Origin: Hydrolagus colliei
Lineage: Eukaryota
Reading direction: 5' to 3'
NCBI GenBank assembly: GCA_035084275.1
Contig: CM068749.1
Location: forward strand, 15,996,001-16,060,000
DNA: 64,000 nucleotides
Under the pieces are notes generated by a model. The model saw nothing but the letters and a program-made list of their open reading frames with translations. It did not search any database and was not told the origin of the DNA. Shown here one piece after another: positions 2,301-52,228 of this stretch (its first letter is position 1; every line of letters begins with the position of its first letter). Made by a program: the position numbers and the translations under genes.

Positions 2301-3395
2301 ATACTTGGGAGAAAACAGCAGAATCAGCACTCCTAACTGTATCTACAAGAGACAAGTTAGCATTATGACATTGGCAATGTCCCTGAATCATGTGTGAACG
2401 GTTTAGAAATGAACACCTTTTCTTAAATATAGTTAAAAAAATAAAGAATATGTAATAGCCAAGAATTCCCTGCAAAGTGTAACATTAATACTGTAGTTAC
2501 ATTATTAACCTGATGATTGCAGTAAATATTACCACATTATCCTGATCATTTCCAGACTTGCCAATTTATCACAGAAATCCTGGAATTTCTGGTAACCTCA
2601 CCACTCTCTGAGGCTGAGACAGATTTAATGTGGCAGACTGTAATTTGTTGCCTGTTTACAATAGAAGAAAGATGTGTACTGAAATGTTCTCTCCTGACCT
2701 GACCAAAGCTGATGTTAAGGTGTGAGGAATGAAATCACGCCAACCAGTCTAGCTCCTTTTAAAATGTTTTTACGCAGAAGCTTCTTCTGCTACATATACG
2801 TGAGTTCATTCCATAAATGTAATTTTAGCGTTGTTGTCCATTGAAGGGGAATTAATGCACTATTCTGCTCCATCGCTAAGTGTACTGACTTTGTCTTTAT
2901 GTGCTTGGAAATAGCAATAACCCCATTTGTATTTTTAAAGAACCACAATGCAAATGTAAATTTAAATTTTAAATTTTAAATAGAACTATGTTTTTTAAAT
3001 AAGCACCGAGGACTCACGAGCCGAACTGAACAGAATTGAATTACGCTTAACAAATATCAACTACAAAGAGCATGTAGAAGAGAATAACCATTAAATGGAG
3101 GGAAGAGAGAGGCTGAGGGAATTAAACTTTCTTATTCGCCCTGAGATTTGATATCTCTGGGTTGAATGCTATAGTTTGGCTTTTTGTTGTAGCCAATGGC
3201 TTTTTGTTTGTAGCCAATTTTGTTGTAGTTTTTCAAGCCTCATGTGGGCTGATTTAAAAAACAAGTTTGGTTTCCTTACCCTCACCCTAGCTCCCCAACC
3301 CCACCCCCTACACACACACACACACACAGGGTATGACCAAATGTTGGTTGGCTTTTAAAAAGTTTCCTATGAGCTAAAATGGACTTCAACATCTA

Positions 3396-3454
3396 AACTC
3401 AAAATTTACATTTATATAGTGCCTTTCACGTGGAGAGGACGTCCCAAGGCGCTG
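3396..3454 (-). mobile_element. L2-type 3' tail only
   Basis: tttatatagtgcctttcacgtggagaggacgtcccaaggcgctg is the reverse complement of the tail stem-loop. Confidence 0.75.
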
Positions 3455-5746
3455 CACAGTTAGGTAGGGACTTGTAATGACAGCTCCAGCACACAAACAC
3501 TCACACACAGGCAGGTCCCAAATGTTATGTGTTATCCATGCAATGGGGATTTCTTTTCACAAATATGGGCCAAATTATGTCACTGGGGCATTATTGGCCA
3601 TTGGCTCCTTCCCACATAAGTTTAAGCACTCCTGCTGGGCTACTGAAGAGCAGCACTAAGGATACATGTGAAAGATGGCCTGAGGTAGGCGTCTTCCAAA
3701 TGGGAGCATTAATTCTAACCCACATACAATCACTGCACTCTATACAAATTCAAAATAGTATCATGTCTAACCCAAAATAGAAATTGTGTTGCCTATCGCT
3801 TCAGGTTTGATGCTGACGTGAAACTGCCCCATAGGTTGCAAACTCAACCCTACCTCTGAGAACAATTCCTGCAGCGCAACTTGAATTATTTCTTTTTAAC
3901 AAAGCATTATTGAAAGAATCGGAGGGAATAGAACATGTTTGAAAGTAGAGTAGCTGCAGCCACTATACAGAGTGTGAGTTTGCCTGCAACAAACCATGCA
4001 GTGCCCCAACTCGGATCAAAGGACTTGCCGAGTTAGTATCCAATACTACGTGTGGTGAGGAAGCAACAACAAAGGAATGTATTCTAATTTAAGAAAAATA
4101 TGCCAAGTTTAAGATAGGATTAAGGAGATGAATTTTCAATTAGTGTAACAGCATGCTGTGGCATGCAATGGGTGGTGGGTAGGTGCTTCTTATAATATTT
4201 TGTTCACAAGGAGAGAATGATGCTTGGTAGGTATGATCCCTGGGTCTGGGATGCATTGACGACTTGGGAATGGCTCAACATGTTTTGCGGTTGGGGTGAC
4301 ATAGGACTCAAAACACTTGAAATGAAGGGAATGATAGGGTGCAAGCAGGTCCAAGAAAGTTTAAATCATCCTGGGCCCAACTGGTTTGGGTGCATACTTA
4401 TTCTTCAGCATGCATACAGTGTTGTTGAGACCAACACAATCTTTGCAGTGACTGTTCTATTAAAATGTCAGAAGTATTGTTTAATTGTTGTAATATTGGC
4501 CTGGCACTACAAAAAGAATGCATTATTTTAATTGCACAACAAAAAAATGGTTTAGTTCCATTTGTCCTTTTTTTTATCCCCTCTACTTTCTCTCGCTTGC
4601 TCTTATTGTGAGTAAGTCTGTTTGTTCACATGTCACTGTTGTACGGCAACTGCCGATGTAATTCAGCTGTTGTAAATGAAAATTGTGAATGTGTTCTGAT
4701 GGAGTTAACTTCGACGATTTCAGTAATGCAGAACCATGTTGAACTATCGGTCCTTACTGGTTATGCTCTTATTTGTATAATGACACACTAGAGATATCGA
4801 CAAGGCAAAACCCTTCCTCCGATTTTCTCCTCTCTTTTCCCGGAGAAGATGGCTCATTATGTGTTGCTGTTGCAGGGGTGTGGGGTAGTTTTCAACCATT
4901 GCAAAATGACCATACTTTACGTGGGAGCTCAGTCAGTGAGAATTCAGAATTAATTTCCTTCCGACATCTGTTTTCGTGTACTCATCTGCTATCTTTGCTC
5001 ACATCTTCTTGCATGTAGTTTTGCAATTCACCTCTGCTCAGTCACTTTGGCCTTTCAAAACTATCAGCAGAATTAATTTTCACTCGGCTATCTGGCTGAG
5101 CAGAACGGCTTGACAGCATGTTGAAAATGTGTGTTGCTGCATCAATCTGGAAACATAAGTTATGTGACCTACGCTCGAAATGCTTTTTCAAGCTTTTTTT
5201 TTCCAGGGTATGGGGAACGCCAAAGATGGTGTCATGCCATGCGAGCATTTGTCCGTTGTCATTGCTAAAGATGTTTATGAGCCATGTACTGTCCACATTC
5301 TTTGAAGTTCGATGAATTCTTTCCCAGGCCATGTTTTAAAGGAAAACAAATTTCGAAACCTACATTCGAGGCTAATGGAAAAAAACAACAGTCATTTTCT
5401 AATGTTATTTGAATTTGGAACATCGCCACACTTTTAATTTCCCCCAATGCCCATATCAGACACCACATTACTGTTATTAAAGAATTCTGGTGCAATCGAT
5501 ACAAAATATGCAACCCTTTTTCCGGGAATTATTATTGTGTTTCAAAAGTTAATTCCGTATTTCATGAAGTAAGACTTTAAACCGAGCTTGGGAGATTTTA
5601 TTTTCAACATAATTATCATTGTAAAGTCTGATGTACTGATAGAGATTTGAGGATTCAGCTATCTCTCTGATCTTTATAATGCAGTACTTCCTTTTTATTA
5701 TTTTATAAATAAGTTTTCCACATCCGTTCCCTGACCAGGACCGTTC

Positions 5747-6681
5747 TTTTCCACATCCGTCACATTATCCGCCTCCTTCTGTACCTCACAACCAATGCAG
5801 CAGAAATCATCTTCCCCACTTTTGTTACTTCCCAGCTGAACTATTTAGCTGTACTATTCAGAAGTCCTATAGCTCAGTGCTTAGACCACTCAACTTGCAA
5901 GTGAGTGACCTGGGTTCGAATCCAGGCAGGACAAAACCTTGGTCAAGTTTCCTTACTCCACAAGCTTAATAATAATCTGTCAAAAAAACAATAATAATTT
6001 GGTCACTCAATCCAAGACTGTTTGTGGACACTGCTGTGCGCAATTGGCTGCCACATTTGTTCCACAAATATACAGTCAATTCACTGTACAGTGTATTCTT
6101 TGAAGTGCTTTGAGACTTCTGGAAGACATGAAAAGTGCTATATCAAATGCAAGGATTATTATTACTATTGCTATTACAATGCCCTCCTTGCTGGTCTCCT
6201 CAGTACCAAACTACGCAAAATTTAATTAATTAAAAACTCCACCATATAAAACTCTGTACCCCCGTCACACCAGTCCTTGTCAGGCTCCATTGTTCTCCCG
6301 GTTACCAAACAGATCGATTTCAAGATCCTCTCACTCGTTTTCAAATCCCTTCATGCCCTTGCACCTTCCTACCTACCCAATCTGACTCCAGCATCTACTG
6401 GCGTACCTTCGGCTGGCTCTGCCCTCCTCTTTGTCCCTCGTCCCCTCTGCTACACTATCAGTGGCCGTGCCTTCAGCCACTGTGCACCAAAACTCTGGAA
6501 CTCTCTCCCTCAATCCCTCCACCTTGCTGTCTCCCTCCACTCTTTCAAATCCCATTTAAAGACCTTCCTTTTTTGATTGTGGGTATGTTCACCTCTCGCT
6601 TCCCTCTCTCTCTGTCAGACTCTGCAACTGTCGACGTTGCCCCACATGAAGGGTACTATATAAATGCAAGTTGTTGTTGTT
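5747..6681 (+). mobile_element. Degraded L2 LINE ORF2 C-terminal region and 3' tail, interrupted by a SINE
   Basis: 5747-5845 encodes a degenerate FHIRHIIRLLLYLTTNAAEIIFPTFVTSQLNY. After the SINE it resumes as YYNALLAGL...LPVTKQIDFKILSLVFKSLHALAPSYL...RAFSHCAPKLWNSLP...FKSHLKTFLF and ends in tatataaatgcaagttgttgttgtt. Confidence 0.9.
5861..6170 (+). mobile_element. tRNA-derived SINE with Deu-type tail (family A)
   Basis: A-box-like tagctcagtgcttaga and B box ggttcgaatcc; body ...tgctgtgcgcaattggctgcc...; tail aatgcaaggattattatt. Matches copies at 33150, 41420, 45016 and 59291. Confidence 0.9.
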
Positions 6682-7370: not shown

Positions 7371-10300
7371 ATACTTACTGTGCTGACCTCTGCTTTACTG
7401 TTACCTTAAAATAGGCTTCATTCTTCACATGTGTGTTGTATTATATGTTTTTTTTTAATCTTCATCCTGTGTTACTTTTAACCCAAACCTATTGAGAGAA
7501 CAATAGATTAAATGTGTCTGGCTGTTGCAGTTTGCTGCTGTAGCCAGGCGAAACAGTGAAAGATTCTCAGTTAGCTTTCTTTTAATTATACACCAGGATA
7601 CCTTAGAGCTGTGTGGTCTGGAAAAGGTCACTTGCCTGTGAAAATATGCTTGATCTTGAATGTATGTAACCAGATTGTTTTAAGGGATTCAGTTTGTGTG
7701 TTATGAGGCCTGACCTTTTATGTCATGAATTTTCAAATGAGTTTGGGGAAGGATTGTCACTGCTGGTATGTACACTCCGAATATCCGTGCAGAATGGAAA
7801 AAGCAGTGTAATCATGTCAATAATTCCATGAGGGATTGGCAGATGCGAATGACACCTTTTGCAGATACCTTGCACAACAGAGCCAAACTGCTGGCGTCAG
7901 ATAGCATATGTATTTTACTAATGGGATTTCATCTTTTCAGTAGAAAATGAGGTTGGTTTGAATTTTTTTTTAACTTATGACTGACAGTGTTATACAGTTC
8001 TTTGGCATGGCAAATGTGTTGAAACTTGATGCTGAATGTTACAATTCAATTTAATTCAAACTGTAGAGGTGTAGAGTTATTTGGTCAATCTTGCATATAA
8101 AGGATTACGATGGAATATATACTTGCTGTTCGGGTGTTGAGATACATATCCACCCAAATAGGCTGCTTCAAGTTTTAACTCTGGTTCAGCAGAGTTCCGA
8201 TGACGGAACATTTCTCTTCCATTCTCCAGTTTTCTGAAAGTGTTGATGCATTATTTGGATATGTCCCGATAGTTTTAAAGTTCAAATTCATCCAGAATTT
8301 TGTGGAAACTTCCTCAATTTTGAAGCTAGTTTTCTTTTTTAAGAATTGAAGAAAACTTTCTTCAAAACATTTATTTTTATTTGAGCAAATTTGAGAAAAT
8401 AATAATGATGAATAACAATATTATTAATAATAATAAACGGCTATTTGCAGTACTGGCTGCAATATGTTTTAACTCATGTGACAGACTGAGGGAGAGGACG
8501 ATTCAGTCTTGTGTCCTTGTTTCTGTCCGAGTGCTTGTTAGAACAACATTTGTTGCTACCACACTGCCCAAATGGAGGAGGAGTCATTCTTATTTCCAAA
8601 TTTCTTATTTTCTTGGTTATTACTTAAAATCCTGTGTTTTTTTAACTTGATATCTGAGGACCGATGTCATCCTTTGTGATGAAAAGGCTTGTCTGCTCTC
8701 TGAGCTTTATACAGTACTGCTGCTAGATCAATATTTTAGAAGACTTGTGCGAAAACGTCTGGTGTAAACCCCAGTGATCGTGTTCTGCTGCCTCATCAAT
8801 TCTTGGCTGGAGATCACATTTTGAACAGGTATCCTATGAATGTAAATGGGACTGCTTACCTCAGACAACTGCGGAATCTGCAGAAGCCCAATCGGGTTCT
8901 ATGGAATCACAAGGGATCAATAGGAGCACGCTTTCACACATGAAAACATAATTATGGGATGATCTGAATGTGACATTGCGTCAGAATTATTAAATGAACA
9001 CATCCTAATATAAAACAGCAATGTTGGATGTGCATGGCAGCGGCATTGGTTCAGGAGGTTGGGTTTGCACAGAGCTGAAGAGAAACTGCATCCATTGCGA
9101 TGTGCCTTAGATCTGGTGAGTAACTACAGCTAGTGCGCAATGAAGTGGACCAGTGGGGACTCTGAGAAAAGAGTTGAGTTGAAAGCATTATAAATAAATG
9201 TAGCAAGATAATTCTGATCTCTTCCTGACTTCACTTTTGGTTTTGTTCTGTATTTTGTTGCTTATTTTGTGCAAGAAGGAAAATTAGAGATCTCAGTCCT
9301 GGGAATGGAACAGTTCCCCTTTCCAATTATTTGAAAGCGTTTATATGCAAACTGTGTGTTGATGGCTCCATCTAGTACTTTAATCTGTTTCCAGTTTATT
9401 CCCCATTTTGTGGTAGATGCCCCTACGCTATAGTTTGAGTTTGTTTAATAATCCCCTGACAATGGTTTGACACCTGGGCAAACCTCTCTATTTCTAAATT
9501 TTGTTTTCATTTATGCTTTGTGCCTGTGTTATTTCAGCATCTTCTGTATAATTCCCTTTGAATGATCTGCTCTGGTGTATTAGTTCAGTGCTGTTCTGTT
9601 AGCAGCTTCCACTTTGGTATATTTCTCATAAAACTGTCACAAGTATATTGGAGATTTAATTTCGCTTGGAGTATTCTGAATGCTGCGGTGAATGTTGTGA
9701 AACCGATGTGCAATCTTAGGACAACGAAAACAAGGGCGTGTTTGGATCACATCTCCACTGAATACCCTCGGCTGGATTGATAATATAGAAACCCGTTTTG
9801 TACCACTTATGTCCCTGTCATGAGTGCATTATTTGTAGCAACTTAATAGAGCTGCAGGTTCTTATGCGTAATTACTTATATCTCCCCCTGCAGGATAAAT
9901 TAACACTTGGGACCTGAATAATGCTTGGTAAGACAATTTCACTGGAATTTACTTAATCAGTCTCATCATTTCCCCAGGTAGCTGTCTTTACCTGGTACAG
10001 AATGTGTGATAATCAGCAATAAGTCATTCTTAACTGTTGAGGGTTAATTAGGCAGCCCTTGTTGTTGGAAGTATGTGGAAAAAGCCTGACCTTCATTCTA
10101 AGGCTATGCAAAATATAATGGCATGCTTCACTGATATTACCCCCTACTGGGAATGGTTCGTTTTTTGGAGACAAAGCAGTTGCATGTTCTACCTTGGAAA
10201 ATATGTTATTATTAGCATACAGCAGAGGAATCACAATTTTCTAATAGTCTGGCTTTTGTCTATTCACATCACATCTACTCACTGCAATAAAAGAAGCAGA

Positions 10301-10691
10301 CTATTCAACTATGGAGGGCATCCGTGTCGACACACGTACAAAGCACACCCATGTGTACAGATGCACACAAAACACACATGCATGTACATCAGATAAACAC
10401 GATATGTACAATCACAAGCTACACACACTTAAGTTTTCTATCTGGATTCTCGTACGGGCGAATGGAAGTGGGTAGGTAATGCTCACTACCTTTGGAGAAA
10501 GTCGTAAACCATGGTGTGTCAAACAAATCTGTTGCCCCGAAATCTGTCCTGCAAGGTAAGGTTAGATTCCCTAACGCTGTGTCATGCTAGGAAACATGAA
10601 AAGGTTCAAAAGTACCCTCGGTGATACTTGCTATAGATGCAGGGGTCGAGGCCTTCTGCATCTACCTTCTGTTGACAAAGGGGTATTAAAT

Positions 10692-10800
10692 ACAACAACT
10701 TGTGTTTATATTGTACTTCCCTTGGGGTAACGTCTCAGAGCGCTTCACAACGCTGAGCAAGTGAGAAGGGGAAGAGGGTTGAGGGGAACGTGAGCGAGGA
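10692..10800 (-). mobile_element. Degraded L2-type 3' end
   Basis: acaacaacttgtgtttatat...aacgtctcagagcgcttcac followed by a purine-rich tract (complement of a pyrimidine-rich 3'UTR). Confidence 0.55.
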
Positions 10801-10810
10801 TACAATTCTA

Positions 10811-11010
10811 AGACAAAAACAGAAATCGCTGGGAACAACCAGCAGGTCAGGCAGCATTCATAGAGAAAGGAAACGTTCTGACGAAGAGTCACGGACCCGA
10901 AACGTTGACTCACTTTTCCTTTCTCCATAGATGCTGCCTGACCTGCTGGTTATTTCTTGTCATTTCTGTGTTTGTTTCAGATTTCCAGCATCTGCAGTAG
11001 TTTGCATTTC
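10811..11010 (+). mobile_element. Penelope-like terminal repeat with an inverted partial copy
   Basis: 10811-10873 (…aaccagcaggtcaggcagcattcatagagaaaggaaa) is the inverted complement of 10914-10978 (ttttcctttctccatagatgctgcctgacctgctggtt…). It ends in cagatttccagcatctgcag. Same family as 52113-52210. Confidence 0.75.
10875..10909 (+). ncRNA. Minimal type I hammerhead ribozyme-like motif
   Basis: CUGACGA (10878-10884) + A, stem II GAGUC-acg-GACCC (one mismatch), GAAA (10899-10902), palindromic ACGU helix III with U at the cleavage position, helix I GUU/GAC. Confidence 0.6.
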
Positions 11011-11893
11011 TATACAGTGCTAAGAGTTCATTTTTAGGCAAGATTAAAAACAGATAGTGGAGACAAGACACCTGAAGATTTAGCCTTTAATTGTGACTCA
11101 TAGAGTGTTTAGAGGCACTCAAACAAAGCAAATAAAGCTTTAATACAAACAATATTTGCAGAAAATCTAATAGCCATAGATGTACATAGCATGTGTGGTC
11201 TTTAAATGTGGGGGACAATTACATTTTAATGTGTGATTTAGGGTTGATACAAATCCATACCCGTGACGTTCCCTACAAATCCCCCCACAGCAGTGAAGAT
11301 ATCAATTTTTTTTCGCTTGTCTGAATTTATCTAAAATCTGCAAGTGGAAATTTGCATTAAAATGGACGAGAGTGACATTGAAACGATTGGGTGAAAATCG
11401 AGATTTAAACATTTACATATAAAATATATTTGACATCTCCGTGACTGGCTTTTGAGTGGATTTTGACTGTATATTTTTGTTCACTGAATAGCCATGTATA
11501 TTTTCTCTGGTGTGCGCACGGGGTCAATAAATGGGAGCAAAATCATGCACAGAGGGTTCTGGTATGAACCTGTGTTTAATATATGGTTCAGGTTGTACAC
11601 AGCAAGTGCTATTTATGGGCCTATTTTACATAATTGAAATGGTAGTGCTTGCCTCCACATCAGCAGGTCTGCACGGGCACAAATGTAAGGAATCCCCCAG
11701 ACAGGTAACTGCTGTACCACTTTCTGAGTTGAAAGTTTGCAGATGAATGTAATATGCTGGAACGTTGCCGTCAGTGGGCTGTGCTCTATTCAAAATGCCT
11801 GATTTTTCAACCGAGGTAGAACAAGCGCACATTGATTTGAATTGGTGACGTATCTCATTGGTCGTCATTGCAGATACAGCAGGTCAGGGCGGT

Positions 11894-11959
11894 ACGACGA
11901 CAACAACAACAAAATCCCATTTGTAGAGCGCCTTTCATGTCGGGAGGACGTCCCAAGGC
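11894..11959 (-). mobile_element. L2-type 3' tail only
   Basis: caacaacaacaaaatcccatttgtagagcgcctttcatgtcgggaggacgtcccaaggc. Confidence 0.8.
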
Positions 11960-13724
11960 AGTGAACAGTTTCAAATATCAAGGTGTAAACTTAATTTTTT
12001 TTCAGCCAAATCAAAATACCTTTTCACATCTCTTGGGTACATGAGATGCCCCTTCGGTCCAAAAATCCATCGGAAATCGTGCAGTGTGCATACCATTCTG
12101 TGAGTTCCATGTATGCCACCTGAACAGGTAAATTTTCGTTTGAAATGGAATGCTTGCTGTCACTCAAGGGACTCATCCCGGAGCGTATTAGGCACAGGTC
12201 AGTAAGATCATGGCTTGACATCCCAGTGTGTGCCTTGGGATATTGCTGGAATTTATCCAGCTAAAACCGCATCGCTTGCAATTGAATGCACTGTCTGGTG
12301 AGCTTTCTGCTGCTGGTCCAGCTAGGACCACCAAAGCCATTAGGGCTTTAATTTGCAGACTTAACAGGAACTGAGTGGAAAGAATCTCTTCCCCCAGTGA
12401 CGAGTCTGCCACTCCAAATCCTGCAGATGAGTAGGCTGTGTGTGATGAGGAGACATTCGGTTGAAGATAGCCCTTTGGTCCATTTGATCTGATACTTTGC
12501 AATGCTACATTTGCATCACCATAGTAACCATAGTGATTTCAGAACAGAGAGCTGCTGAATGCAACCCATTTTCTTCAAAGTCTTCTGTAGTTTGCTTGGG
12601 TTAACATTTATGGGAAGATTGACCACTCGCCAGATCTTGGGTTGCTGGAGTACGCAAATAGAATGTAAATGAGGAGACCAGTTGAAACTCTTCAGTTTGA
12701 TTTTTGACTGAGTCCTTGAAAAGTACTTCAGGGTCCACTGGGCAGTAAAGTAGCCGACTGTGGTTATCAGCCTTTACTCCAAACTTTCTCTTCTCCTGAT
12801 TCTTTGCAAGACAGCTGGTTGCAGGGAACCTTTGGATGACTCATGCTGCTTACCAGTATGTGGGCAACACACCCGATCTGTATTGCTCATCGTCTGGAGC
12901 TGATAGTCATGTACGCAATGGTCCGAAGGTCCAACTGTTGCTATTTCAAGAATGTATCTAATTAAACCCGGTTGAGTGCTCAGTGCTTTATGGGACAGCA
13001 ACTGATCTACGATTGTATTTGAATTCATTTGGGTGTTTTGTTTTAGTAAAAAAAAGCACAATACATCTGCTTCCTTTGAGTTATCAAACCTTACCTGCCA
13101 CGTCTGCTATTTTACACTTAGATCATCCATCAATATCTAACTTTTACTACTGGTTATTACCTGTCATTTGAAAATCTATTTTACATTGTTCCTGCAGCCA
13201 AAGAGGGGCCATAATAATAGAATTCACTACTAGGTTTCATAAATTCTTAGCAAATCAATACTTTTTTCACTGAGAATATATCAGTGTTTCACAGCTATGC
13301 ACCATTAAACCTTACCACTATTCTCATAGCCTCAGATTTGAGCTGATGGGTTAAGCTAATGCTGCTTGTTAATTGGAATGTTCCATTTTAGAGAATGCAT
13401 AGAGTCCATTGTGCTGAGAGTTTAAATTGAAGGCTTGTTTGTGTTACCCATTTGATTACTGCTGCTTTTGGGGGCCAGTTCATGACTATTAACCTAGCCC
13501 TAAAATAGCAGTCGAAATTCAGCTGAATGAATGTGGCATCCATGAAATTTCTGGGGTGAGATTAGAGAGAAATAACTGGTGTATTTTAATGTCAATCACT
13601 TGTCTCCTTTTAAGTTTTGTAACATCAATATGCTAATGGAAACGCCTCTGAACTTTTAGTGGGTAAAGTGAATGTCTGGTTCAACAATAAGTTGCAGTTT
13701 GCATCCTGAGCGGGCATAGTTTTC

Positions 13725-13915
13725 TGAGCTGGTGAGTGTTTCAGTGGCCTCTGTATCCTAGGTTCAGGAGGGGACAGTCAGGGTTCCTGCTCCTAATTTC
13801 TAGAAGGAGCACATGGTTGTTTGTCAGGTGAGGATAGGCTTGGCTCGGCTGATGTCTGTGGTTAAATGGCCTGTGAACACTCAATGTCAAGACATACATT
13901 TGAATAATAACTGCA
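13725..13915 (+). mobile_element. Ancient SINE-like interspersed repeat (family B) fragment
   Basis: Shares cagggttcctgctcct, ggctcggctg and acactca.tgtc with the copies near 55745, 42380 and 52440. Confidence 0.6.
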
Positions 13916-14699
13916 TGGAGGACTTCCCACAGGGTAACCACTTCTTGCACCTCAGAAAAAAGATAAGGAAGTCAAAGGCCTTCAGAGCAGCAAGAGGGGA
14001 GAGTGTTGGAGGAGACAGAATTGGTAAATAAAAAAATGATTCCAGTTTATCTCAGAATGAGAGAGCTGTTGAGCTGAGCTGTTTTAAACAGACAAGTGTC
14101 CTGTGTCATTTATTCACAGCAGTCCTGCCATGGCTGGGCATGGTGCATTGGAGAGTTTGTATTTTGTGCTATCTTGCTACTCTTTCTTAATGCAATGAGC
14201 CAGTTATCATTTACATCAAAAACAATTTTCAGTCACATGTGGTTGCTTTTTAACTCTCTGCTATTTAAATATCCCTGCTGTGCAGTTCAATGATTGCATT
14301 TCAGATGACACAGGAGACCACCTCCAGAAATCATGCTGAAAGGATGTTCCAGTTAGGTGCATGTTTTATAGCAGGTACTTTGTATAATTTCCTTATTAAT
14401 GAGGGATTAATAGACAGCAGATGTCAAAGATTGTGATCTATCTGAGAATCTTATAATGAAAAGCTGAGGCACTGGGTTATGTCTAGATGCTACACTGTCT
14501 GCATTTTCTTTCCGCAGATTCACACCTTCGGCAATATTATAAGTATTGGTGGCGATTGCTAACAAATGGACAAAAGCAGAAAATATACTTTGAACCTAAA
14601 TCCTGTATAACTGGATTTAGGTTTGATGCTTTTAATTTTGGGGGTTCTGAGCAGTGCCACCTAAAACTTCAATCTGTCTCTTTAGATAATACGGGACAT

Positions 14700-37661: not shown

Positions 37662-38661
37662 TAGGGAACGGCGATATGGGAATTTCCCGATATGGATATA
37701 TCGGTTGGCTCATATCGAGATATACCGAAATATCGATATTTTCAGTTTTTTCGTACTGCGCATGCGCGCGCGCATCGGAGTGCGCGCGCATTCCGGGCCA
37801 ATCTTCTCAGGAGGTAAATATCTTTCTCTCTATGTGTCTCTCACTCTCTCCATCTCTGTGTTTTTCTGTCTGTGTCTCTCTCCCTCTCTCACATCCCCCC
37901 CCCATCTCTATCTATCTGTATATTATCACATCCACCCCGTCTCTCCCCCCCCCACCCCCCGTCCCTCTCTCGCACCCCCCACCCCCGTCGTCTCTCTCCC
38001 CCACCACCCCCCCAGCTGTCTCTTTCTCCCTCCCCCCCACCCCCGCCGTCTCTCTCTCCCTCCCCCCCCAGCCGTCTCTCTCCCCCTCTCCTCCCCCCTC
38101 CCCCGCCGTCTCTCTCTCCCTCCCTCCCCCGCCGTCTCTCTCACCCTCTCCCCCCCAGCCGTCTCTCTCCCCCTCTCCCCCCCAGCCGTCTCTCTCCCCC
38201 TCTCCCCCCCAGCCATCTCTCTCCCCCTCTCCCCCCCAGCCATCTCTCTCCCCCTCTCCCCCCCAGCCGTCTCTCTCCCCCTCTCCCCCCCCAGCCGTCT
38301 CTCTCCCCTCTCCCCCTTCCCCCAGCCGTCTCTCTCACCCTCACCCCCCACCCCACCCCGGCCGTCTCTCTCCCCCTCACCCCCCCCCACCCACAGCCGT
38401 CTCTCTCCCCCCACCCCTTGCATACCTGTATATTGTATTCGAGGACGATGAATACAAGATGGCGGCTTTGCACCTCGGTCTGTGCATTGTGTATAGAGAT
38501 GAGCATTCTGGGTCTTGTAGTTGATTGTGCTCGCATCCCGATTTTTTACCTCGATATATCGTTTTTTCGATATATCGATATTTTTTAAATGCCTATATCG
38601 GCATATCGATATTAAAATTATATCGGGTTTTAGCGATATATCGATATATCGCCGTTCCCTA
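37662..38661. mobile_element. Young non-autonomous hAT-superfamily DNA transposon (MITE-like), 1000 bp
   Basis: Perfect 16-bp TIRs TAGGGAACGGCGATAT (37662-37677 / 38646-38661). Perfect 8-bp TSD GTATGAAG (37654-37661 / 38662-38669). Many subterminal ATATCG/CGATAT repeats and undecayed CpGs. Confidence 0.93.
37935..38415. repeat. C-rich minisatellite (~27-bp unit gccgtctctctccccctctccccccca) inside the hAT element
   Basis: Tandem units are directly visible and give the PSLSPSPPQ repeats in the ORF track. Confidence 0.9.
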
Positions 38662-47317: not shown

Positions 47318-48041
47318 CCCTCTCTTGGCTTCTCTGTGGGGAGACAGATGCCTGACTTTGCTGGAAACCTCTCTCTGTAAGCAGCAGCGGTAACATCAAT
47401 AGAGATGGGGGAAACTCAACAGCGGGGACGGGTTTTTTTTTTGTGTGAACCCAAGTCACCCCTGTTCCAATAATACAGCCTTTACAAGCCTATAGTCTAA
47501 TCGAGATGCAGATAGTGTCACGAATGGCAAGGCTGAAGGATGAGTGGTTTGCAGCCATTTATCTGAACTCTCATGATTAGATGGCAGACTTGAGCTCACT
47601 CCCCCCGACGACTGCGGGCGCACTTTTCGAAAGGGAAAATCCGCGTTTTGTTCGGCGTCCCTTTCCTTGGCCAGGGTTTGTCTCTGTTGTTGGGGCTCGC
47701 CCTTTGATGCCTTGTGAATAACAAGCCAAGGAGTGTTATTGAATGGCAATACATTTCTGTCTTGCTCGGTTTACAGTACAGTGTCGAGTGTCTCACCGCA
47801 CAACATGGTAACGTGGGGGGGCAAGATTGTGTTGTTGGTGGGGGTTGTTTTTTACAAGGCATGGCCCCTGTCCAACGAGAAAAGAGAGTTTTAGAAATTG
47901 GATGGGGGAGTGGGGGGGGGGGGGTGAGAAAGAATAATAAAACACCGGGATAGTAAGACAGATGGACAACAGTGAACGAGTTGGTGAGAGAGAGAGAGTG
48001 AGATAAAGAGACAACAGGGAGGGGAGAGAGCATCAGCAAAA

Positions 48042-48241
48042 NNNNNNNNNNNNNNNNNNNNNNNNNNNNNNNNNNNNNNNNNNNNNNNNNNNNNNNNNNN
48101 NNNNNNNNNNNNNNNNNNNNNNNNNNNNNNNNNNNNNNNNNNNNNNNNNNNNNNNNNNNNNNNNNNNNNNNNNNNNNNNNNNNNNNNNNNNNNNNNNNNN
48201 NNNNNNNNNNNNNNNNNNNNNNNNNNNNNNNNNNNNNNNNN
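48042..48241. other. Assembly gap (200 N)
   Basis: Run of exactly 200 N, typical of a fixed-length scaffolding join. Confidence 1.
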
Positions 48242-52053: not shown

Positions 52054-52228
52054 AAACAACGACAATCACAAAATTACACTTGTATAGCGCCTTTCGTGTC
52101 AGGATGATGTCCTGACGAAGGGTTGTAGACCCGAAACATTGACTCTTTTTCCTTTCTCCATGGATGCTGTTTGACCTGCTGAGTTTCCCCAGCAACTTTT
52201 GTTTTTGTTTTGATGTCCCAAGGCGCTG
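52054..52228 (-). mobile_element. L2-type 3' tail split by a Penelope-like insertion
   Basis: acaaaattacacttgtatagcgcctttcgtgtcaggatgatgtcc [insert] caaggcgctg. Confidence 0.85.
52113..52210 (+). mobile_element. 98-bp Penelope-like repeat insertion with hammerhead core and 8-bp TSD
   Basis: TSD TGATGTCC at 52105-52112 and 52211-52218. Core CUGACGA-A-GGGUU-gua-GACCC-GAAA-CAUU. Downstream tttctccatggatgctgtttgacctgctg matches 10920-10948. Confidence 0.8.

Follow-up and report, generated by a model that had tools for sequence, protein, structure and literature searches.

A head-to-head hammerhead insertion as the probable stub of a Penelope-like element

Within the window, i.e., the whole stretch of 64,000 nucleotides of DNA that was analysed, a hammerhead ribozyme motif lies inside a long inverted repeat. 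A preliminary description placed this structure at 10811-11010 and read it as a Penelope-type or retrozyme-like element in which the inversion lengthens helix I of the ribozyme. Is the hairpin part of a self-cleaving RNA, or does it record how the element was inserted? We consider the second answer the better one: with a probability of roughly 0.9, the insertion is a two-armed, decayed stub of an EN+ Penelope-like element (PLE) with a Neptune-type linker, in which the same short RNA stretch was likely copied onto both cut strands and in which the hammerhead is predicted to be inactive.

Anatomy of the insertion

The insertion spans positions 10813-11011 (199 bp) and comprises only two end pieces of the element, without an open reading frame (ORF) between them; the earlier bounds had captured a real insertion but not its true extent. 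The first arm (10813-10873, minus strand, from the minus-strand self-match) is an inverted, 5'-truncated element end, a pLTR piece that carries neither the tail nor the ribozyme core, in agreement with the inverted terminal piece described previously. The second arm (10875-11011, plus strand) is a 5'-truncated end in sense orientation, starting 3 nt before the CUGA core, which is the modal start in the family. Its last ~34 nt (10978-11011, plus strand) form the PLE 'tail', which the inverted arm lacks; in L123, a near-full-length copy of the element, the same sequence continues towards the ORF start. Comparison of the flanks places the 13-bp TSD copies at 10800-10812 and 11012-11024 (plus strand), identical at 11 of 13 positions, and TSDs of the family are mostly 12-16 bp long.

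The inverted-repeat arms, 10804-10876 and 10912-10984, are 73 nt long and 81% complementary, with a near-perfect stretch of ~22 bp inside the 73-bp duplex. Folding of the hairpin, the check proposed at the outset, gives -93.3 kcal/mol for 10800-10990 (z -11.8), a value equalled by none of 200 shuffles.

The hammerhead motif

The sense arm contains a minimal type I hammerhead (10875-10909, plus strand), read from the sequence, with a cut predicted after 10906 and misfolding predicted in this copy. The core starts with CUGACGA (10878-10884) and an extra A (10885); stem II is built from GAGUC (10886-10890) and GACCC (10894-10898), with a mismatch between A10887 and C10897; and the 3' core GAAA-C-G-U-U (10899-10906) ends with U17 at 10906. 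Helix I is limited to 3 bp between GUU (10875-10877) and GAC (10907-10909), and helix III is the loop-less palindrome ACGU. The letters of core, stem II and helix I are thus present as first described, and the CUGANGA/GAAA/UH signature, the extra base before 10.1, the G10.1-C11.1 pair and the palindromic 15.2-16.2 positions confirm the minimal type I identity. The mutated stem position is a G in 49 of 53 family copies, and the change was most likely gained after insertion.

The loose core pattern is near chance level in the 64 kb (2 matches against 0.78 expected, with 19 of 100 shuffles reaching 2), and both matches belong to one repeat family. An Rfam search of 8000-14000 returned no hammerhead match at E <= 10; its 9 matches, none of which reaches the gathering score, are mostly to generic miRNA-hairpin models. 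An identity as a miRNA was rejected, as these are generic hairpins far under the cut-offs.

A dispersed family and its parent element

Searching the same genome (1.0 Gb) turned up 2,304 preliminary candidates; the 40 that were scored are all dispersed, and the best of them matches the window copy at 91% over query positions 76-206. The copy-number check that had been called for finds an abundant family: a 22-nt motif downstream of the ribozyme has 7,579 exact matches, the 32-nt core with intact stem II has 356, and the core with free stem II has 2,027, while the reversed-pattern controls gave 0 in each case. As both arms match exactly in 11 of 42 head-to-head pairs (~0.4 per arm), rough arithmetic puts the family at ~18,000 arms. 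The second copy in the window (52112-52211, plus strand, right end approximate) is a sense piece only, without inversion or tail, and its helix III palindrome is broken; it appears to be nested in a copy of the abundant repeat that also occurs at 11880-11960, with GATGTCC on both flanks. Judged by the listing, none of the papers returned by our literature search is on this family; Repbase, Dfam and subscription journals lay outside its scope, and the family may be named there.

Extending copies that have longer 5' parts in the upstream direction led to the parent element, first to a pyrimidine-rich 3' UTR, next to a GIY-YIG endonuclease with a Cys-rich linker and finally to a PLE-type reverse transcriptase (RT). 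At seven of eight long loci, RT, GIY-YIG and 3' UTR follow one another on one strand and lead into a sequence that matches the window's sense piece at 76-82%; the eighth, L127, ends before the element end. The anticipated linkage to RT and GIY-YIG Penelope frames is therefore borne out, and with it the Penelope-type origin of the window hairpin. A single-frame PLE-type RT (DKG) followed by a C-terminal GIY-YIG domain is tied to the family end sequence, with DKG, YIDD and VVY..YIG motifs in L123 and the linker motifs CX4CxxC in L097 and CQCRRCxxC in L080. Related RTs carry RVT_1, some of them also GIY-YIG (PF01541); the closest, 67% identical, comes from a shark record, and others include marine invertebrates. 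The RT piece itself scores 20.8 bits against Pfam RVT_1, under the curated cut-off of 29.6 bits, and the endonuclease piece, which has no Pfam match, was recognised by its motifs. A Cys-rich CX2-5CxxC linker between RT and EN is described in PMC8557442 and PMC3846280 as a Neptune feature common to Nematis. Judged from the motifs, the linker would fit either clade, Neptune being the reading preferred here.

L123 (positions 3269-6450; G000:C2:104535268-104538449) is a near-full-length, Neptune-like copy with both pLTR pieces, its frame broken by shifts and deletions. Its end piece (3269-3344) runs through the tail into the ORF from 3381, and is repeated at 6312-6440, behind the ORF, i.e., as a partial-tandem pLTR; on this copy, the ORF would begin ~170 nt past the CUGA core. 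Every family copy seen is broken, and none offers an intact ORF. Most of the long linked copies fall in a sister subfamily, matching the window piece at 76-82% where the best short copy reaches 91%, such that the parent ORF is known mostly from that sister subfamily and not from the window copy's own.

Fold-back insertions across the family

The family was sampled by position: the first 96 of the 7,579 motif matches, covering 8.4 Mb of contig C1, represent 90 loci, five of which were dropped as second arms of the same insertion, and the arms of the remaining 85 insertions were mapped against three natural copies. These comprise 42 head-to-head pairs, 42 single copies and one other; pairs being sampled twice, our own arithmetic puts their true share nearer 40%. 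The same head-to-head design is found at kilobase scale in L126. The 3' ends of the arms cluster in two ranges, roughly +94 to +106 and +126 to +137 (counted from the C of CUGA). The longer end, with the tail, is confined to one arm in 34 of 37 classifiable pairs (p 1e-7; five unclassifiable pairs were dropped), and either arm can carry it (18 versus 16). TSDs were called in 25 of the 42 pairs, 24 of these being 12-16 bp, versus none of 42 shuffled-flank controls; in single-arm copies the calling succeeded in 8 of 26, and exact 5' junctions are thus known for few. The window copy and the family share an inverted 5'-truncated copy, a one-sided tail and a TSD, which is the pattern published for PLE insertions, with a tail of 30-40 bp, in PMC8557442 and PMC3846280. 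For the anole element, PMC11167929 traces the tail to a pair of internal sites at which the RT starts.

Most arms are 100-140 nt long with shared ends, and their junctions vary from copy to copy. Two independent fold-backs, L208 and L212, carry a similar ~23-nt patchwork insert at the junction, made of short pieces of the element, which suggests repeated template jumps there. We note also that the 3' flanks of L003, L012, L049, L063 and L085 lie next to a 34-nt motif of an abundant repeat, and that this motif occurs in 11 places in the window. A 3' flank match to the motif was counted in 4 of the 85 insertions, versus 1 of 338 control windows. Its offset varies, and a weak target preference for the repeat is possible.

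The 5' ends of the copies

The 5' ends of 49 of 126 arms fall within 10 nt, -7 to +2, at the 5' edge of the ribozyme, compared with 31 in the next 22 nt and 10 in the 20 nt upstream (p 4e-8 and 5e-15 for the pile-up); the placement of alignment ends carries an error of a few bases. The 9 nt around the cut site (+29) hold 8 of the 126 ends, i.e., no excess (p 0.29), and ends at this site would be visible, as the sampling motif lies downstream of the ribozyme. Because 5' ends pile up at the ribozyme edge and not at the cut site, the RNA that served as template had probably not been cleaved, and its 5' end may be located at that edge. The short form with its pile-up is seen in each of the three subfamilies tested (26/72, 15/39 and 8/17 arms), all of which also have longer copies. 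The pile-up site is initiator-like, CC-A-GTTC with the A at -4, and fits the consensus YYANWYY for initiators. An internal initiator is described for the promoter of the fly Penelope (PMC2377424).

At somewhat less than even odds, the copies would record the element's RNA template, most of them spanning the distance between an internal RT start and a constant 5' terminus in the first bases of the hammerhead. On this reading, an uncut ribozyme would open the transcript, and the 100-140 nt stubs, thousands in number, would be cDNAs of 'strong-stop' type whose transfer to the other end of the RNA did not take place. Judged by the listing, our literature search on this point returned only unrelated papers. 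The pile-up could instead come from pausing of the RT or from preferred microhomology at GTT. A spliced leader was considered as well, since the site is also acceptor-like (CAG|TT, after a pyrimidine tract), and a D. virilis intron is reported to end at helix I (PMC4209133). That cause was rejected: 26 upstream contexts share nothing, mutually or with the element body, beyond shuffled scores, and no common first exon was seen among them, a scan that an exon of a few bases would escape.

Folding and variation of the ribozyme

All folding values are nearest-neighbour equilibrium predictions at 37 °C for the RNA alone, without Mg, protein, partner or dimer. In the window copy, the predicted pair probability of helix I and stem II is 0.00, the hammerhead fold is disfavoured by 10.2 kcal/mol relative to the ensemble, and the mutated strand of stem II forms pairs with helix I's 3' strand that span the cut site. 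Three of three other inverted copies with intact stem II are likewise predicted to lose helix I, at a cost of 11-14 kcal/mol, and for three copies in their native context the hammerhead fold would cost 3.2-6.0 kcal/mol. When the hammerhead is imposed as a constraint, a 1x5 internal loop separates helix I from the long duplex, contrary to the idea that one runs into the other. The fold-back being a family-wide design (42 of 85) and helix I having no predicted probability, the proposed extension of helix I by the inversion finds no backing either; the inversion would rather bury the cut site, and the hammerhead is predicted to be inactive in its own copy.

Variation among subfamilies backs the structure of stem II and helix I. 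Among copies with A at 10.1, U is found at 11.1 in 27 of the 31 whose helix I strand is AAC, versus 15 of the 69 with other strands (p 1e-9; hand count of the first 100 listed of 120 matches). The older subfamily has changed the base of stem II from G-C to A-U together with U.G to U-A in helix I, i.e., the stem II change in this one subfamily is one event, and another subfamily has a one-sided change of C-G to U.G at the loop end of stem II. L221, L236 and L238 belong to the older, more diverged subfamily, with A-U at the stem II base and U-A in helix I. As to the conservation check, stem II covariation is seen, as one event; the core is not significantly better kept than its neighbours (non-CpG changes 14/468 versus 26/624, p 0.33, in 53 long copies), and no purifying selection on inserted cores was detected in these copies.

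Alternative explanations

That the inversion stabilises helix I, making the window copy an active self-cleaving RNA in a host transcript, is very unlikely, even though its conserved core bases and G10.1-C11.1 pair are all intact and the outer duplex is very stable. The predicted loss of both helices and the paired-over cut site speak against it, as do core bases kept not significantly better than their neighbours and the only other core in the window, which is 41 kb away with a broken palindrome. Minimal hammerheads are reported to lack activity as monomers and to have low activity as dimers (PMC4209133). We hold it equally improbable that a short non-autonomous element of the retrozyme, SINE or MITE type, with a fixed hairpin master copy of its own, produced the family. 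The short arms with shared ends would suit such an element, and retrozymes have been proposed as PLE derivatives (bioRxiv 10.64898/2026.07.22.740005); yet junctions that differ between copies, a tail on either arm, the short form alongside longer copies in every subfamily tested, TSDs of 12-16 bp and the lack of tandem units here all argue otherwise. The 'retrozyme-like' label was likewise not sustained: no matching direct repeat was found in 9000-13000, the two cores in the 64 kb lie far apart, and at least two direct tandem units with a hammerhead, the mark of a retrozyme, are absent from this arrangement.

Passive ADAR editing or Dicer cutting of the hairpin in host read-through would be a consequence compatible with its origin as a PLE stub. 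Duplexes derived from repeats commonly serve as ADAR substrates, and the long duplex with its near-perfect stretch would be a suitable one; no host exon was identified, like hairpins number thousands and this one is not special among them, and we regard this fate as rather unlikely. In the host-exon scan of 209-21206, none of 143 frames of 52 or more amino acids reaches the Pfam cut-off (three matches are sub-threshold), although short exons would escape. The window also holds a second very abundant repeat at 11880-11960, probably a LINE or SINE end, with an ACAACA-rich end followed by a conserved stretch of ~50 nt; contigs of run X1 accumulate here and on the hairpin alike, a depth that is not a copy number. 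A C-rich, tandem-like repeat at 37800-38500 gives long low-complexity frames, and a run of N lies at ~48040-48240.

Discussion

The PLE stub preferred here could have arisen as follows. On the biochemistry of Frangieh 2024 (PMC11167929), we infer that the endonuclease would cut both DNA strands ~13 bp apart; that reverse transcription would begin at one of two internal sites ~34 nt apart, leaving the tail on one arm; and that the two short cDNAs would join by their 3' ends, with a GTT microhomology in the window copy. The hairpin would then be a by-product of two-ended copying, a step deduced rather than observed, and not a part of the ribozyme.

As one fossil among many thousands, the window copy matters little in itself, and is likely an ordinary inactive stub. 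The family statistics provide in-genome support for two points shown in vitro with one lizard element, namely two internal RT starts and the dispensability of cleavage. If true, the uncut-template reading makes the role of the PLE hammerhead testable by mapping 5' ends, and the fixed 5' end at the ribozyme edge offers a clue to the copying mechanism of these poorly understood elements. The family also warns that hammerheads within fold-backs of such genomes are by-products of insertion and not riboswitch-like designs.

Like non-LTR retrozymes (PMC7229834; bioRxiv 10.64898/2026.07.22.740005), the insertion is non-coding, PLE-related and carries a type I hammerhead; unlike the direct tandem repeats with canonical hammerheads in the retrozyme examples, it consists of one inverted pair whose hammerhead is minimal. 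It resembles Adineta Pen2a_Av and other EN+ PLE insertions (PMC3846280; PMC8557442) in having an inverted, 5'-truncated piece at its 5' end, a tail of 30-40 nt restricted to one arm, a TSD and a hammerhead in the pLTR. It differs from the rotifer examples in the same sources in consisting of two end pieces only, and the family TSDs are 12-16 bp in contrast to 8-10 bp.

The family shares with the metazoan PLE minimal hammerheads of Cervera and de la Pena 2014 (PMC4209133) a short helix I (4 bp in this family), the extra base between 9 and 10.1, G10.1-C11.1, the palindromic 15.2-16.2 without a loop III, and the occurrence mostly as single dispersed motifs and close opposite-strand pairs. Stem II is 5 bp here and 7-8 bp in Schistosoma, and the window copy departs from that type by its stem II mismatch and the U at position 17. 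Such hammerheads are reported there from fishes, coelacanth, frog and reptiles, cartilaginous fishes not being named in the part seen.

A further parallel is to green anole Poseidon_Ac (Frangieh et al. 2024, PMC11167929), which belongs to another clade without the Cys linker, and whose ORF starts inside the ribozyme and not, as here, some way past the core. Self-cutting by the anole PLE hammerhead required addition of its protein; hammerhead cleavage is not needed in that system and no RNA ends were reported at the cut site, which compares with the lack of excess copy ends there in the present family. Both elements have two copy ends ~30-40 nt apart, and those of the anole match internal RT starts.
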